Positions 1,046-8,178 of a stretch of 8,178 bases of DNA are shown here, piece by piece; positions within the stretch are counted from its first letter, which is position 1, and each line of letters opens with the position of its first letter. Below the pieces are notes generated by a model. The model was not told the origin of the DNA. It worked only from the letters and a program-made list of their open reading frames with translations, and made no database searches. Made by a program: the position numbers and the translations under genes. This DNA comes from a virus (taxonomy: Duplodnaviria > Heunggongvirae > Uroviricota > Caudoviricetes): the IMG/VR virus record IMGVR_UViG_2778261085_000010, one strand, 5' to 3'.

Positions 1046-1855
1046 TCACTTAATTATTGGATAACTCACACAAGTATGACCGTTGCTTATCGCATACATT
1101 TGGTTTCCCTTAAGATTTACAAATGGAAATGTCGTATACTCATAATTTATAGAGGTCATGTTAAATGTAAGGAATTTATCTTCAAGTTCTAATTTTGTAG
1201 AGTGGGCAGGGTATGTTCCTTCATTTTTCATTGTGATAATAAAACCGATAGGGAAAAAATGTAAAGCACAAATAAATGCCACATGTCCTTCGTTCATAAA
1301 TGCTACACTTTGAGCGGATATGTGCATTCTGTGTGGGTAAAACCAGTAGTAAATATCATGAGTTTCCTCAAAACTTGAATTTTTACCCAAAACATAATCC
1401 TTTAAAGGTGTATAGAAGGGGCTATCTACGGGTTCTTTTTTACAATCTTCAACTGAAGTTGCTGATAGCACGTGCCCAATCATAGCCTTAGTGAAAGATA
1501 TGCTATCAAAAGGTATTCTAATGAATGGATATACATTCATACCATTCATATATCGACTTAACTGTTCTTTAAAGGACTTTGTTACATTTTCAATTGCAAC
1601 ATCGAGCCCACCTAATACCTTATTGTTACAGTGGCTGCAAATGGTTCTGAAATAAGAGCCATTTTTAGCATTTAATGGTTTAACTGGTTCCTGAATACCA
1701 AAAAATTCGCTAACTGTTTTCTGCAAAACAGGGCCTAAGGTTATGGCGCACTTTGGAGGAACATGATCTTTTGTGAGCAAGCCATATTTCCCACAAATAT
1801 TGCAATAACCTTCAGTAATGCCATTGTGCTTCCATCGTTCACTAATTTTCGTCAT
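1046..1855 (-). CDS. HNH nuclease-domain protein with uncharacterised ~190-aa C-terminal domain (269 aa); AT-rich cargo gene
   Basis: Uninterrupted 810-nt ORF on the minus strand. Start ATG at 1853-1855 is preceded on the mRNA by GAGGGA plus a 7-nt spacer. The N-terminus carries a zinc-finger HNH pattern (CNICGKYGLLTKDHVPPKC ... NGSYFRTICSHCNNK). GC content is visibly lower than the flanking prophage genes and the gene is opposite in orientation to them. Confidence 0.7.
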   Translation of the reverse strand: MTKISERWKHNGITEGYCNICGKYGLLTKDHVPPKCAITLGPVLQKTVSEFFGIQEPVKPLNAKNGSYFRTICSHCNNKVLGGLDVAIENVTKSFKEQLSRYMNGMNVYPFIRIPFDSISFTKAMIGHVLSATSVEDCKKEPVDSPFYTPLKDYVLGKNSSFEETHDIYYWFYPHRMHISAQSVAFMNEGHVAFICALHFFPIGFIITMKNEGTYPAHSTKLELEDKFLTFNMTSINYEYTTFPFVNLKGNQMYAISNGHTCVSYPIIK

Positions 1856-2178
1856 TTTTATTCCCTCAGTAGCATAAGCTATCTATACGTTTTTTAATCC
1901 TATCAAAGATACAACTTAACGTCAGGAAAATGATAGTGTTTATCTAAGTAATACAATTAACTTCAACGCGTGACAGTCTGCTTTTCGCTCAAAGCGGACT
2001 AGAAGGTTAGCTTGCGTCGGACTTGGCGTATTTAAAGAAGTGCTGGTGGTGACTGGTTGTTGTGTTCCATTTCTACAGAACAAAATCACAGAAACTATAC
2101 CCAATAGTTGTATTGAATCACTGACGAGACAGCCTCATATTTATCAGGACTGGTGTACGTCCAATACAGGAGGTTGTG

Positions 2179-2268
2179 GTGCTGGTTCTCAAATGTGCGC
2201 TGGCTATTGCTGCTGTAATGGCAATTTATTGCCTTGCTGTTGTTCTTATGGATCGCCTTTCTGATTGA
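2179..2268 (+). CDS. Candidate small hydrophobic peptide (29 aa, MLVLKCALAIAAVMAIYCLAVVLMDRLSD)
   Basis: Perfect Shine-Dalgarno AGGAGG at 2168-2173, 5 nt upstream of GTG 2179. The peptide is a single predicted transmembrane helix. The overlapping listed ORF 2040..2264 is Cys-rich (CCCNGNLLPCCC) because it reads the Ala/Leu codons of this frame out of register. Confidence 0.3.
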   Translation: MLVLKCALAIAAVMAIYCLAVVLMDRLSD

Positions 2269-2317
2269 TTTTATATTGGCGAGGTGACGTGAGTTAAGTA
2301 GAATTGCTGCGGGTGCT

Positions 2318-2358
2318 TGAGGCTATCTGCCTCAGGCATGAACACCAAAGGCAGATAG
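2318..2358 (+). promoter_or_regulatory. hok mRNA leader with mutually exclusive stem-loops
   Basis: Local hairpin TGAGGC(2318-2323)/GCCTCA(2329-2334) overlaps an alternative long-range 9-bp pairing CTATCTGCC(2323-2331)/GGCAGATAG(2350-2358). Alternative folds of this kind are characteristic of hok-family mRNA leaders. Confidence 0.4.
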
Positions 2359-2479
2359 ATAAAAGCCCCAGTTAACATTACGCGTCCTGCAAGACGCTTA
2401 ACATTAATCTGAGGCTCAATCTATGAACGGCAAATCTAGGTTAGCCTCTTACGTGCCGAAAGGCAAGGAGAAGCAGGCT

Positions 2480-2635
2480 ATGAAGCAGCAAAAGGCGATG
2501 TTAATCGCCCTGATCGTCATCTGTTTAACCGTCATAGTGACGGCACTGGTAACGAGGAAAGACCTCTGCGAGGTACGAATCCGAACCGGCCAGACGGAGG
2601 TCGCTGTCTTCACAGCTTACGAACCTGAGGAGTAA
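2480..2635 (+). CDS. hokD: Hok-family type I toxin HokD/RelF (51 aa); possible in-frame upstream start at 2423
   Basis: Translation MKQQKAMLIALIVICLTVIVTALVTRKDLCEVRIRTGQTEVAVFTAYEPEE matches the HokD/RelF sequence as I recall it and carries the Hok signature (TM helix, LCEVRIR, AYE). AAGGAG RBS lies 9 nt upstream of ATG 2480. A second in-frame ATG at 2423 also has a GAGG RBS 8 nt upstream, which would give a 70-aa form. Confidence 0.85.
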   Translation: MKQQKAMLIALIVICLTVIVTALVTRKDLCEVRIRTGQTEVAVFTAYEPEE

Positions 2636-2664: not shown

Positions 2665-2703
2665 ACCTCTGATGTGTCAGGCATCCTCAACGCACCCGCA
2701 CTT

Positions 2704-2730
2704 AACCCGCTTCGGCGGGTTTTGTTTTTT
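2704..2730 (+). terminator. Rho-independent terminator downstream of hokD
   Basis: ACCCGC-ttcg-GCGGGT stem with UUCG loop, followed by TTTTGTTTTTT. Confidence 0.6.
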
Positions 2731-2802
2731 CCTGGCATTCTGGTTTACAATTCGCACGCCAGCCTGAACAACTGGCACCTGCTGCGCCAGCAGAGACAAC
2801 CG

Positions 2803-3081
2803 ATGGCGCACGATACCAAATTACACAATTCTGATAATTCAGCCGTCTTTGCCAGCAGGCACGGGCGGCGCTCTCACGCATTTAAATCTGATTGGTACCA
2901 GCATCCCCCATGTACTGAAGAACAAGCTGAATGGCTAATTCAGTGCTACCGCAGACACGGATACGAGATTAAGAAAGCCCTCAGCCTCGATTATCGTCAC
3001 TGGATAATCTCCGTCAGGCTTCCTTACTCCGAACGCCCACCGCGTCCGTCACGCACATTCCAGCAACGGATCTGGAGGTAA
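2803..3081 (+). CDS. rem: Rem-like small prophage protein (92 aa from ATG 2803)
   Basis: Listed ORF 2674..3081 starts with a GTG inside the hokD terminator, so the internal ATG at 2803 (weak GAGA RBS) is the more plausible start. Position between hokD and the DUF968 gene matches the K-12 Qin order hokD-rem-ydfU. Symbol assigned by synteny and recollection, not by alignment. Confidence 0.45.
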   Translation: MAHDTKLHNSDNSAVFASRHGRRSHAFKSDWYQHPPCTEEQAEWLIQCYRRHGYEIKKALSLDYRHWIISVRLPYSERPPRPSRTFQQRIWR

Positions 3082-3082
3082 C

Positions 3083-4138
3083 GTGCGGGTATTACTTCGA
3101 CCTGTTCCGGTACCGGAACTTGGGCTGGTGGTGCTAAAGCCGGGCCGTGAATCCATGCAGGTATTTCATAACCCTCGAGTGCTGGTGGAGCCGGAACCGA
3201 AAAGCATGCGCGGTCTGCCATCCGGGATTGTTCCTGCCGTTCGCCAGCCACAGATGGAAGATAAATCATTACTGCCATTTTTCAGCGACGAACGGGTGAT
3301 TCGTGCTGCTGGCGGCGCAGGCGCATTGTCTGACTGGCTCCTGCGTCATATTAAATCCTGCCAGTGGCCTCATGGTGACTACCATCACAGTGAAACCGTC
3401 ATTCACCGTTACGGTACCGGCGCAATGGTGTTGTGCTGGCACTGCGACAACCAGCTGCGTGATCAGACATCGGAATCACTCGGGCTACTTGCTCAACAAA
3501 ATCTGACAGCCTGGATGATTGACGTCATACGTCACGCAATAAGCGGTACACAGGAACGGGAATTATCGCTGGCTGAATTATCCTGGTGGGCGGTCCGCAA
3601 TCAGGTGGCGGACGCGCTACCGGAAGCGGTATTACGTCGTTCGCTGGGGTTGCGTGCGGAAAAAATCCGCCCAATGTACCGTGAAAGCGACATCGTGCCG
3701 GGAGAGCAGACCGCCACCAGCATACTGAAGCAGCGCACAAAAAATCTTGCACCGCTGCCTCACGCCCACCAGCAAAACCCGCCACAGGAAAAGACGGTGG
3801 TAAGCATTGCCGTTGATCCGGAGTCACCGGCTCAGTATCTCCAGCGCCAGAAACCACAACGGGAAGAGATGCCTGTATACACGCGCTGGGTAAAAACGCA
3901 GAAATGCATGACGTGCGGTAATCAGGCAGATGATCCGCATCACATCATTGGTCATGGACTGGGAGGGATGGGAACAAAGGCTGATGATTTGTTTGTTATT
4001 CCGCTGTGCCGTAAATGTCATAACGAACTGCACGCCGGGGTAAAAGATTTTGAAGAAAAACACGGCAGCCAGCTGTTGTTGCTGATTCGTTTTTTAATGC
4101 ACGCGAGAAATTCGGGTGTCCTGAAGTGGAAAGCATGA
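3083..4138 (+). CDS. ydfU: DUF968-family prophage protein (YdfU-like, 351 aa) with C-terminal HNH-like zinc motif
   Basis: GTG start at 3083, 4 nt after GGAGG (3074-3078) and 1 nt after the upstream stop. C-terminus reads CMTCGNQADDPHHIIGHGLGG...IPLCRKCHNELH. Length and synteny match K-12 YdfU (~349 aa) next to the Q gene. Confidence 0.75.
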   Translation: MRVLLRPVPVPELGLVVLKPGRESMQVFHNPRVLVEPEPKSMRGLPSGIVPAVRQPQMEDKSLLPFFSDERVIRAAGGAGALSDWLLRHIKSCQWPHGDYHHSETVIHRYGTGAMVLCWHCDNQLRDQTSESLGLLAQQNLTAWMIDVIRHAISGTQERELSLAELSWWAVRNQVADALPEAVLRRSLGLRAEKIRPMYRESDIVPGEQTATSILKQRTKNLAPLPHAHQQNPPQEKTVVSIAVDPESPAQYLQRQKPQREEMPVYTRWVKTQKCMTCGNQADDPHHIIGHGLGGMGTKADDLFVIPLCRKCHNELHAGVKDFEEKHGSQLLLLIRFLMHARNSGVLKWKA

Positions 4139-4516
4139 ATGACTGAACGCATAGAATTTGTTTTGCCTTACCCGCCGACGGTGAACACCTACTGGCGACG
4201 CCGTGGCTGCACATATTTTATATCGGAAGCCGGTAAGCGTTATCGCCGCGATGTGGCGCTTATCGTTCGCCAGCAGAGGCTGAAATTAAATCTGTCCGGA
4301 AGGCTGGCGATAACGGTTATCGCAGAGCCGCCGGATAAGCGCCGTCGTGATCTGGACAATATCCTGAAAGCGCCACTGGATGCGCTGACACATGCGGGGC
4401 TGCTTATCGACGACGAGCAGTTTGATGAAATTAATATTGTGCGCGGTCAGCCTGTTCTTGGTGGGCGACTGGGTGTGAAGATTTTCATAATCAGAGGTGG
4501 TAACGATGGCGCGTGA
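4139..4516 (+). CDS. rusA: RusA-family Holliday junction resolvase (125 aa)
   Basis: ATG at 4139 abuts the upstream TGA (ATGAATGA junction). Conserved RusA catalytic region PDKRRRDLDN...KAPLDALTHAGLLIDDEQ compares well with E. coli RusA (PDRRRRDLDN...KAAFDALTKAGFWLDDAQ) as recalled. Confidence 0.75.
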   Translation: MTERIEFVLPYPPTVNTYWRRRGCTYFISEAGKRYRRDVALIVRQQRLKLNLSGRLAITVIAEPPDKRRRDLDNILKAPLDALTHAGLLIDDEQFDEINIVRGQPVLGGRLGVKIFIIRGGNDGA

Positions 4517-4871
4517 CATTCCATTTGTTCTTGAACGATGGGGGGCATGGGCTGCGAGTGATAGCTCAGGAGTTGATTATTCCCCAATTGCTGCTGGATT
4601 TAAGGGGCTTTTACCGTGTACCAGTAAAATACGACAGGCATGCAGTGATGCGGATGGATTAATCATAGATGGCTGCCTAGCTCTTCTTAAGAAGAAAAAA
4701 CCATATGAGCACTCTCTGATTGTGGCTCATTACTTGTATGGTATATCGAAGCGGAAGATCGCAAAGGCACGTAAAAAAGATGAGAAACTAATACGTATTG
4801 AGATTAAGATGGCTGAAGGGTTTGTTGAAGGCTGTCTCTCAATGAGGGGTGTTAAACTTGAAATGGATTAG
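4506..4871 (+). CDS. Late-gene antitermination protein Q (121 aa)
   Basis: ATG 4506 with GAGGTGG RBS, overlapping the rusA 3' end by 11 nt. Motif LERWGAWAA...IAAGFKGLLP...LEMD is characteristic of the Q antiterminator family of lambdoid prophages (quuD/quuQ type). The listed start at 4497 is a GTG 9 nt earlier. Confidence 0.8.
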   Translation: MARDIPFVLERWGAWAASDSSGVDYSPIAAGFKGLLPCTSKIRQACSDADGLIIDGCLALLKKKKPYEHSLIVAHYLYGISKRKIAKARKKDEKLIRIEIKMAEGFVEGCLSMRGVKLEMD

Positions 4872-7616: not shown

Positions 7617-8064
7617 TCTTCCAGGTATGCAGGGTTTTATCTTTTATGTTAGCTGGTGGTTGCTGGTAACCTGAAATGGTTATGCTTGCTTACATAGTAA
7701 TCCGCGTAATTACGTAATGCAGCATGCCATACAGGTATCGTATAATGGCGATTACATAAGCCTACCAGGTTGATGATGCAGGTTAGATTCCTGCTACCTG
7801 CTACCTGCCCATGGTTGTTTATGCCAAGACTATGTCAGGCACTGACATTATATTATGTGGGGTGTTTTTTATGGTTACTTGCGCACCCTGTTCTGTAATG
7901 AGTGATATTCGTTGCGGTTCCAGTGCCATTTTTTTTACAACATCGGAATGGTGCATTATTAGCAAATATTTTTTCTGCTTCAGGCATTATTCCGATGTTG
8001 TAAACATCGACAAAACAAAACCCAGATTAGTCACATACTAAGTCAAGCCCGGACATCATTCCTT

Positions 8065-8089: not shown

Positions 8090-8104
8090 ATTGTGCACAG
8101 AAAA

Positions 8105-8123
8105 CCCCCAGCTAGGCTGGGGG
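8105..8123 (-). terminator. Candidate terminator for a minus-strand gene entering from beyond the window end
   Basis: CCCCCAGC-tag-GCTGGGGG 8-bp stem; on the minus strand it is followed by TTTTCTGTG (short U-tract). Confidence 0.4.
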
Positions 8124-8178
8124 TTCCGGAAAGCTTTCAGCTTTGAGCCAGTTATTAAAACCCCTTTTGATTTGTTAA

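Follow-up and report, generated by a model that had tools for sequence, protein, structure and literature searches.

Short hydrophobic proteins with a single helix are known from several described systems, with which we compare here a small gene at positions 2179-2268 of an 8,178-nt viral DNA segment (IMG/VR record IMGVR_UViG_2778261085_000010; the whole segment is hereafter called the window). Short type I toxins, such as TisB (29 amino acids, aa), ZorO (29 aa), DinQ (27 aa), ShoB (26 aa) and Ibs (19 aa), are made from mRNAs that have long structured 5′ untranslated regions (UTRs) or sequestered ribosome-binding sites, and an antisense partner is encoded nearby. Small inner-membrane regulators, such as KdpF (29 aa), PmrR (29 aa), MgtS (31 aa), CydX (37 aa) and AcrZ (49 aa), offer another model: proteins of the KdpF type are single helices of about 30 aa, which are directly translated and bind larger membrane proteins. 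With the short type I toxins, the peptide of the small gene shares its length, its extreme hydrophobicity and the single predicted helix, but the Shine-Dalgarno sequence of the small gene is open, and neither a conserved antisense promoter nor an antisense transcription start site (TSS) was found. With KdpF, PmrR and MgtS it shares a size of about 30 aa and a single predicted helix, and its invariant residues, spaced i, i+4, i+8, are consistent with one interaction face. KdpF-type proteins are encoded beside or in the operon of their partners, whereas the neighbours of the small gene vary except for hokD, and no partner is evident. Judged by these analogies, the small gene appears to work most like the class of KdpF, PmrR and MgtS, and less likely like that of TisB and ZorO.

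How does the locus compare with its neighbour, hok? Like members of the Hok/Gef family (PF01848), the peptide is small, presumably membrane-targeted, has an N-terminal hydrophobic helix, is carried by prophages and plasmids, and its gene even adjoins a hok gene. It lacks, however, the C-terminal domain of about 25 residues with the conserved Cys and the LCE motif of Hok, and the gene has neither a mok-type overlapping frame nor a Sok-like antisense. The 29-aa peptide gave no match in Pfam at E ≤ 10, and hhalign against a Hok alignment returned probabilities of 0.3-0.7%, which is a lead and not a strict test; a truncated Hok paralogue was rejected on this value of less than 1%. The locus also resembles a prophage moron, being a compact cassette with a conserved promoter-like element, present or absent in syntenic prophages and situated in a cargo hot spot, but it has no terminator of its own, and its promoter is only a candidate.

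Conservation of the small reading frame

The two elements on which the following comparison is centred are these.

2168..2173, plus strand: Shine-Dalgarno sequence AGGAGG, kept in intact relatives with few variants
2179..2268, plus strand: small gene, GTG start, 29 codons, TGA stop; product MLVLKCALAIAAVMAIYCLAVVLMDRLSD with one predicted transmembrane helix

The original prediction, made from the letters of the window, held that a perfect Shine-Dalgarno sequence and a GTG open a 29-aa hydrophobic frame here, and the coordinates are borne out: AGGAGG at 2168-2173 is followed by the 5-nt spacer TTGTG and by GTG at 2179-2181, and the frame runs through 29 codons, encoding VLVLKCALAIAAVMAIYCLAVVLMDRLSD, to TGA at 2266-2268. 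AGGAGG occurs only once in the window, both strands counted, and that single copy precedes the small open reading frame (ORF). In the ORF list of the window the frame is given as 2176..2268 (30 aa) because of a second GTG at 2176. This codon is GTC or ATC in many relatives while GTG 2179 is invariant in the intact lambdoid copies, and copies on the Shigella virulence plasmid pINV have ATG in place of GTG 2179; the invariance of the one and the variation of the other mark 2179 as the start. Variants of the Shine-Dalgarno sequence among relatives are AGGGGG (the group of locus L015), AGGAGA (phage HannyBb) and AGAAAG, the last found only in a frameshifted copy described below; pINV keeps it unchanged, and a 34-aa allele has GGAGG. 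The peptide has a grand average of hydropathy (GRAVY) of 1.81, and its best 19-residue hydropathy window of 2.7 fits one transmembrane helix, after which it ends in a short polar tail, M-D/E-R-x-S-D. Residues A9, V13 and Y17, spaced i, i+4, i+8, are invariant; C18 and L19 follow them.

For comparison, a 22-nt motif situated 60 nt upstream of the ORF served to collect 120 loci from IMG/VR, which were supplemented with loci of E. coli genomes. The motif was placed outside the ORF to avoid selecting on the ORF itself; a sample chosen by this upstream 22-mer may under-sample decayed copies. Among 112 full-length matches with 27 ORF haplotypes, the frame is intact in 111, and the ORF has exactly 29 codons in 109. 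In the L060 type (2/112) an 11-nt deletion removes the stop and lengthens the product to 35 aa, and at L050 (1/112) the region of the small ORF is lost. L009, an E. coli copy outside the motif set, has a 2-bp deletion that shifts the frame, AGAAAG in place of the Shine-Dalgarno sequence, and mutations in both promoter-like hexamers to be described later; the changes in frame, Shine-Dalgarno sequence and hexamers are a correlated decay. L138 is another damaged copy, with Y17H and L23P.

Substitutions were examined site by site, by comparing the distinct alleles of each alignment column with the consensus, at an expected synonymous fraction of 0.29. The frame of the small ORF showed 12 synonymous and 10 non-synonymous changes (S12/N10, p=0.011) and was the sole significant one among the three sense frames, the other two having S6/N15 and S2/N19 without excess; two 87-nt upstream control windows had no synonymous excess in any of the six frames. 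One antisense frame over the ORF reached S11/N10 (p=0.02), but it has a stop codon in its consensus, and an excess there is expected because its third codon positions coincide with those of the sense frame. Variable sites number 22 per 87 nt in the ORF versus 47 and 64 in the upstream windows. Ratios of non-synonymous to synonymous substitution rates (dN/dS) by the method of Nei and Gojobori (NG86) among six lineages lie between 0.16 and 0.55 in 14 of 15 pairs, and the replacements are conservative (V/I, A/T/V, M/V/I/L/T, D/E/N). The same substitution test on hok itself gave S11/N19, not significant, so that the power of the test is limited. Frame conservation and synonymous-substitution analysis among related prophages had been proposed as a check together with the original prediction, and on both counts the outcome favours a real gene. 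By these comparisons, 2179-2268 is likely to be a coding gene.

What of the other frames that overlap the small gene? A 74-aa, Cys-rich ORF at 2040..2264 stands in the ORF list of the window and had been called a frame artefact beforehand; that judgement was right, since a 1-bp indel near 2081 and a 14-bp deletion disrupt this ORF in relatives, and its frame has S2/N19 in the overlap. N-terminally extended proteins, of which databases hold versions of 34-97 aa, were rejected as well, for TGA at 2122 closes the extension in most copies, a 1-bp indel disrupts it, and it bears no sign of selection. An antisense ORF over the small gene, called by RAST and in the HannyBb annotation, has S5/N17 without constraint and was also discarded. 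Such antisense calls are found in phage HannyBb (L133, 2408-2593, minus strand) and in CP037924 (90749..91021), and they are probably mis-annotations; it is the hydrophobic nature of the sense codons that keeps the antisense frame open.

Diverged copies and the limits of the cassette

The most instructive relative is found on virulence plasmids. By tblastn, a 79%-identical copy is present on 124 Shigella plasmids and on several plasmids of enteroinvasive E. coli (EIEC), and in pWR501 about 290 bp separate it from icsP downstream. The pINV copy reads AGGAGGTTGTC ATG TTG GTA and so on, encoding MLVLKGTLAIAAVMTIYCLIVVLMERFSD in 29 codons with the same stop and with AGGAGG retained. Downstream of it, the hokD promoter and leader are recognisable but degraded, and the hok ORF is gone. 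Between the window and pINV there are 18 substitutions in 87 nt, distributed 8/1/9 over the three codon positions and classed as S10/N8 (p=0.017), while the other frames are not significant. The ORF is aligned without an indel; identity in the flanks is 74%, and they contain 2 and 4 gap positions. The wider comparison of indels in flanks is partly confounded, because its downstream alignment was made to include non-homologous sequence of the L015 type; only the parts covering the ORF and the upstream side were used.

In the TSS table from differential RNA sequencing (dRNA-seq) of M90T, grown in tryptic soy broth (TSB) at 37 °C to an optical density (OD) of 0.3, the nearest TSSs on the same strand are an orphan one at 91318, which precedes the ORF by about 320 nt, and those of icsP at 90726 and 90709. 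No terminator-like site was found between the orphan TSS and the small ORF, and thus the ORF may ride on that transcript; the pINV small ORF may be transcribed with, or ahead of, icsP. The stretch 2680-3381 of the pWR501 locus (L136, NC_002698.1) corresponds to CP037924 complement 90617-91318, and the small ORF is intact there, within the long upstream region of icsP.

An even more distant form was found at two loci: L140, an IncY P1-like phage-plasmid, and L141, a lambdoid region of a 438-kb replicon. Their ORFs of 34 aa, MSDDLSLAMEGALAVISVVGVYCLVVFLMDRMGN and MSDDISLVMEGALAVIAVVGVYCLVVFLMERLGN, each have GGAGG and ATG, and the same hokD-type promoter follows after about 70 nt. The 34-aa allele is 46% identical to the window peptide, with the common motif ALA(I/V)..V..(I/V)YCL.V.(L/F)M(D/E)R, and the position and orientation are common to both alleles while the surrounding non-coding DNA is unrelated. 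A count by eye finds about five synonymous differences and five replacements between the 34-aa ORFs of L140 and L141. The National Center for Biotechnology Information's annotation pipeline (PGAP) annotates both as hypothetical proteins, and the 34-aa peptide has no match in Pfam at E ≤ 0.01. A second small hydrophobic ORF lies just upstream of the 34-aa allele, at 1364-1447 of L140 (MNWPEAFAITGVAMAIAFLVYVICRWG, 27 aa) and at about 1388-1465 of L141 (MSRPDAFAGVAIAIAFLVYVICRWG, 25 aa); this ORF is unannotated, overlaps the stop of the one before it, and has two versions distinguished by an in-frame indel of 6 nt.

From these diverged copies one can also delimit the cassette, which is compact and measures some 190 bp (roughly 2099-2285). 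The elements upstream of the gene, in the cassette and before it, are the following.

1976..2098, no strand assigned: conserved upstream block, common to most relatives except L060, HannyBb and the 34-aa allele
2113..2141, plus strand: candidate sigma-70 promoter, TTGAAT (2113-2118), 17-nt spacer, CATATT (2136-2141)
2146..2178, plus strand: predicted 5′ UTR of about 30 nt, following the putative −10 (start near 2146-2148) and holding a conserved TACGTC and the Shine-Dalgarno sequence

Relatives match the window from about 2099-2110 (L060, HannyBb) or from about 2075 (pINV), and on the other side the L015 group diverges about 15 nt past the stop of the small ORF. The candidate promoter matches the sigma-70 consensus at 8 of 12 positions, under the threshold of the promoter scanner. 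Its hexamers are nevertheless kept, as TTGAAT, TTGAGT or TTGAAG and as CATATT, in four diverged lineages (the window with L003, then L060, HannyBb and pINV), and the spacer has a constant length of 17 nt with a wholly different sequence in three lineages. Conserved hexamers with a free spacer suggest the footprint of a sigma-70 promoter, which we treat as a candidate. The stretch 2146..2178 has no indel across 83 unique sequences. If the RNA begins at the predicted 5′ end, the fold of 2146-2310 is unremarkable (z = −0.49), with the Shine-Dalgarno sequence unpaired in the centroid; a structured mRNA was rejected on this value. In the block 1976-2098, alignments show graded recombination breakpoints and several indels, and neither a reading frame under selection nor an Rfam match was found there. 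The block begins at a hairpin (about 1978-2001, CYGCT..TCGCTCAAAGCGGA), and its left breakpoints vary among prophages; it may be the recombination boundary of a cargo slot.

The neighbourhood of hokD and the role of the peptide

Since the small gene adjoins hokD, its relation to that locus must be considered before its function.

2276..2304, plus strand: hokD promoter TTGGCG-17-TAGAAT, from a promoter scan, conserved in relatives; −35 at 2276-2281
2311..2635, plus strand: hokD locus, with the leader including the sok region at 2311-2485, mok from 2423 and hok at 2480-2635

The hok/sok leader is matched by Rfam RF01794 at 2311-2485 (111 bits, E=2.7e-25), and in relatives the PGAP annotation has hokD at the corresponding place. 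The stop of the small ORF is 8 nt before the −35 of hokD and 43 nt before the 5′ end of the hok mRNA, and the distance from the end of the hokD −10 to the 5′ end of the leader model is 7 nt. Because the hokD promoter follows the small ORF, the latter lies upstream of that promoter and outside the hok leader. The promoter and leader of hokD are next to the cassette in 97 of the 112 loci; in 14 the cassette occurs without hokD and is followed by genes unrelated to it, a 120-aa minus-strand ORF and then a 156-aa plus-strand ORF. The small gene is thus not in need of hokD in cis. Two further loci have a disturbed neighbourhood. In a prophage of O157:H7 Z910 (L142, 1201-1370), the last seven codons remain with the hokD promoter and a hok leader that ends after about 110 nt, a fossil of the pair wedged between queH and a DNA cytosine methyltransferase gene, and in pDCE7-1 (L005, 1943-3031) the hokD leader is interrupted, directly ahead of the hok start codon, by an element of the IS481 family, which separates hok from the intact small ORF. 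The small gene and hokD look like an old pair eroded from both sides by cargo turnover.

What, then, may be the role of the peptide? We consider it probable, though by a moderate degree only, that the small gene encodes a directly translated, single-helix inner-membrane protein of about 29 residues and that it has its own cassette. The gene would be transcribed from its own TTGAAT-N17-CATATT promoter, by read-through from the early-right operon of the phage, or by both; its orientation is that of hokD, DUF968, rusA and Q, so that, by analogy with lambdoid organisation, it should at least be transcribed in lytic growth. Translation would be direct, not gated by RNA as is typical of type I toxins, and the peptide would be inserted into the inner membrane, where it may act through helix contacts of the conserved face A9-V13-Y17/C18-L19, with other copies of itself or with a partner in the membrane. 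The cassette usually sits just upstream of the hokD promoter in the variable cargo slot of Qin-like lambdoid prophages, but it is genetically separable from hokD.

Several facts weigh against this picture, and several of them also speak for a chance ORF in non-coding DNA, conserved through recent spread with hokD or as a DNA or RNA element. The status of the gene is based on comparison of sequences. Selection tests rest on few substitutions, only 18-22 of them, with p about 0.01-0.02, and one of the 15 pairs, L008 versus L060, has a dN/dS of 1.18. Flanking non-coding DNA is well conserved among close relatives, including the whole upstream stretch 1976-2178, so that a part of the conservation is due to recent common descent. 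No TSS was found at the equivalent promoter position of Shigella in the M90T dRNA-seq table, and no terminator-like site between the stop of the small ORF and the hokD promoter, weak hits being inside the ORF only. PGAP never annotates the 29-codon locus (no RefSeq/PGAP annotation of this form in about 45 inspected E. coli genome hits), the peptide has no family match in Pfam, NCBIfam or PHROGs, and damaged copies such as L009 and L138 occur occasionally. The similarity of the 29-aa and 34-aa alleles has E-values of 0.3-1, not significant alone, so that homology of the 34-aa allele leans on synteny and the common motif. Against a chance ORF, however, the frame, its length, its stop and its Shine-Dalgarno sequence survive 21% nucleotide divergence without an indel while the flanks gain indels; the start is swapped between GTG and ATG at the same codon; second codon positions received only 1 of the 18 substitutions; the synonymous excess is limited to the frame of the small ORF among the three sense frames; the 34-aa allele keeps the peptide motif, a Shine-Dalgarno sequence and ATG amid unrelated non-coding sequence; and L009 lost frame, Shine-Dalgarno sequence and promoter hexamers together. 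Chance, which the original prediction had kept as a fallback, is now unlikely given this conservation of the frame. That the peptide is a second type I toxin, held by an antisense or trans-encoded small RNA, seems rather unlikely too. Its size and hydrophobicity are like those of enterobacterial type I toxins of about 20-35 aa, it adjoins a bona fide type I system, and the window has a minus-strand promoter-like site, TTAACT-18-TAAAAT at 2297..2268, which would give an RNA antisense to the ORF. But in most relatives the −10 of this site is TGAAAT, with the key A gone, and the −35 is lost in pINV, and the antisense promoter was rejected as not conserved; the M90T table has no plus-strand, that is antisense, TSS over the ORF. 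The perfect Shine-Dalgarno sequence is not sequestered in a fold with the ordinary z-score given above, the gene is intact without a recognisable partner both on pINV, where its start is improved to ATG, and in loci of the L015 type, and the peptide has no similarity to Hok. Within the locus itself, to which the search for an antitoxin RNA was confined, there was no conserved antisense promoter, no antisense TSS of M90T and no Rfam match; such an RNA may be encoded in trans. The earlier proposal of a type I toxin is thus left without support from Hok similarity, a conserved antisense promoter or a sequestered Shine-Dalgarno sequence.

The same prediction had offered a leader peptide influencing hokD, and it might be imagined that the ORF acts as an upstream ORF (uORF) or leader which modulates the hokD promoter or makes a 5′-extended hok mRNA: its stop is only 8 nt from the hokD −35 with no terminator in between, and it adjoins hokD in 97 of the 112 lambdoid loci and in the loci of the 34-aa allele. 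This is very improbable, for the ORF ends before the −35, and the hok mRNA, which begins at about 2311, does not include it; hokD has a conserved promoter of its own; the cassette occurs without hokD in 14 of the 112 loci and is intact on pINV after the loss of hok; and the peptide sequence is under constraint, which a pure cis-acting leader would not need. A different connection to hokD would be that the small peptide and HokD are functional partners, forming a two-peptide membrane module in prophages, in P1-like phage-plasmids and in the ancestor of the icsP region of pINV. The helix of 29 or 34 aa might then modulate the insertion or toxicity of Hok, or be a second killer independent of Sok, and the peptide would have kept a hok-independent role on the Shigella plasmid, inside the upstream region of icsP that is controlled by H-NS and VirB. 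This partnership is speculative, and we regard it as quite improbable. The reading that we prefer is a directly translated membrane protein with a single helix.

Distribution, surroundings and meaning of the small gene

A 187-bp probe (2099-2285), counted as present at coverage of at least 80%, was found in 1703 of 5426 complete E. coli genomes (about 31%), in up to three places each. The cassette also occurs in four complete phages, namely Tritos, Evi, mEp460_ev081 and HannyBb. E. coli K-12 is without the locus, its Qin prophage carrying relBE at this site, and this is why ribosome profiling (Ribo-seq) of K-12 is uninformative.

Exact peptide strings searched in a collection of 15 billion proteins hit only unnamed "hypothetical" or "membrane" proteins, some of them with spurious N-terminal extensions. 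Gene callers sometimes do call the small ORF: the Prokka call CP037924_00134 (complement 90908..90997) is exactly the pINV ORF, and it is found in the supplement of the M90T genome paper (PMC7132871). When the 30-aa form was searched by phmmer against 1.84 billion representatives, there were 9 matches only, all at least 86% identical, and hence no distant relatives are detectable. Rfam at E ≤ 1 over 1976-2270 gave nothing except a chance minus-strand sok match of 21.9 bits. The peptide strings were found neither in 8 million full texts nor in the supplements of an Enterobacteriaceae microproteome study, and an upstream ORF is not mentioned in the hokW-sokW paper or in the Pas sRNA preprint. 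As far as these searches reach, the small gene is an unannotated, prophage- and plasmid-borne gene for a predicted small membrane protein, which is a member of no described family.

The window itself is a segment of a Qin-like lambdoid prophage, in which the remaining features are as follows.

477-770: DUF977
1046..1855, minus strand: 269-aa cargo gene, PHROG 21495, with a weak Pfam match to HNH_5 (E=0.29)
3083-4138: DUF968
4139-4516: RusA
4497-4871: antiterminator Q
downstream of Q: family-2 glycosyltransferase, DNA methylase, tRNA, STnc490

The small ORF had been described as lying between an HNH gene on the opposite strand and the hokD leader. The hok/sok leader and a minus-strand ORF of 269 aa are indeed present, but the HNH signature of the latter is weak. 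DUF977 and the small ORF enclose a slot (771-1975) that is a hot spot for cargo, with contents that vary among prophages (L001-L009, L142); it holds the 269-aa HNH-like protein in the window, and elsewhere a HEPN-domain protein, an AAA ATPase with an HNH endonuclease, a TPR protein, LysE with DUF1989, or QueH. Several of these cargo genes look defence-related.

On the other side of hokD, an ORF of 135 aa (2674-3081) is probably over-extended, since the match to PHROG 1212 is confined to the C-terminal 66 residues and the protein annotated at this position in relatives has 92 aa. The rem gene, found between hokD and the gene of this ORF in many relatives, is absent from the window. A match to isrK at 2644-2725 has 27 bits, below the gathering score of 50, and falls on the 3′ end of the hok mRNA with its terminator; the resemblance is probably one of terminators only. 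Downstream of the methylase, a tRNA-like gene at 7731-7802 has the anticodon ACC and is a tRNA-Gly according to ARAGORN, with an Rfam score of 41 bits and several non-canonical pairs, and it is followed by a match to the Hfq-binding small RNA (sRNA) STnc490 at 8103-8178 (80 bits), cut by the end of the window.

What does the small gene mean for the biology of these prophages and plasmids? It sits in two much-studied loci, that of hokD and the upstream region of icsP, and no new principle is revealed by it. There are practical consequences. Deletions or replacement cassettes at loci of the hokD type may also remove or disturb the small gene, the upstream region of Shigella icsP that has been used in promoter studies holds an intact ORF with a strong ribosome-binding site, and some annotators (RAST, and the annotation of HannyBb) call a spurious antisense ORF over the gene instead. 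For the small-protein field it is a clean and testable candidate, and if it is translated, complete E. coli genomes (about 31% of them) and the sampled virulence plasmids of Shigella and EIEC would harbour a conserved gene for a membrane protein.

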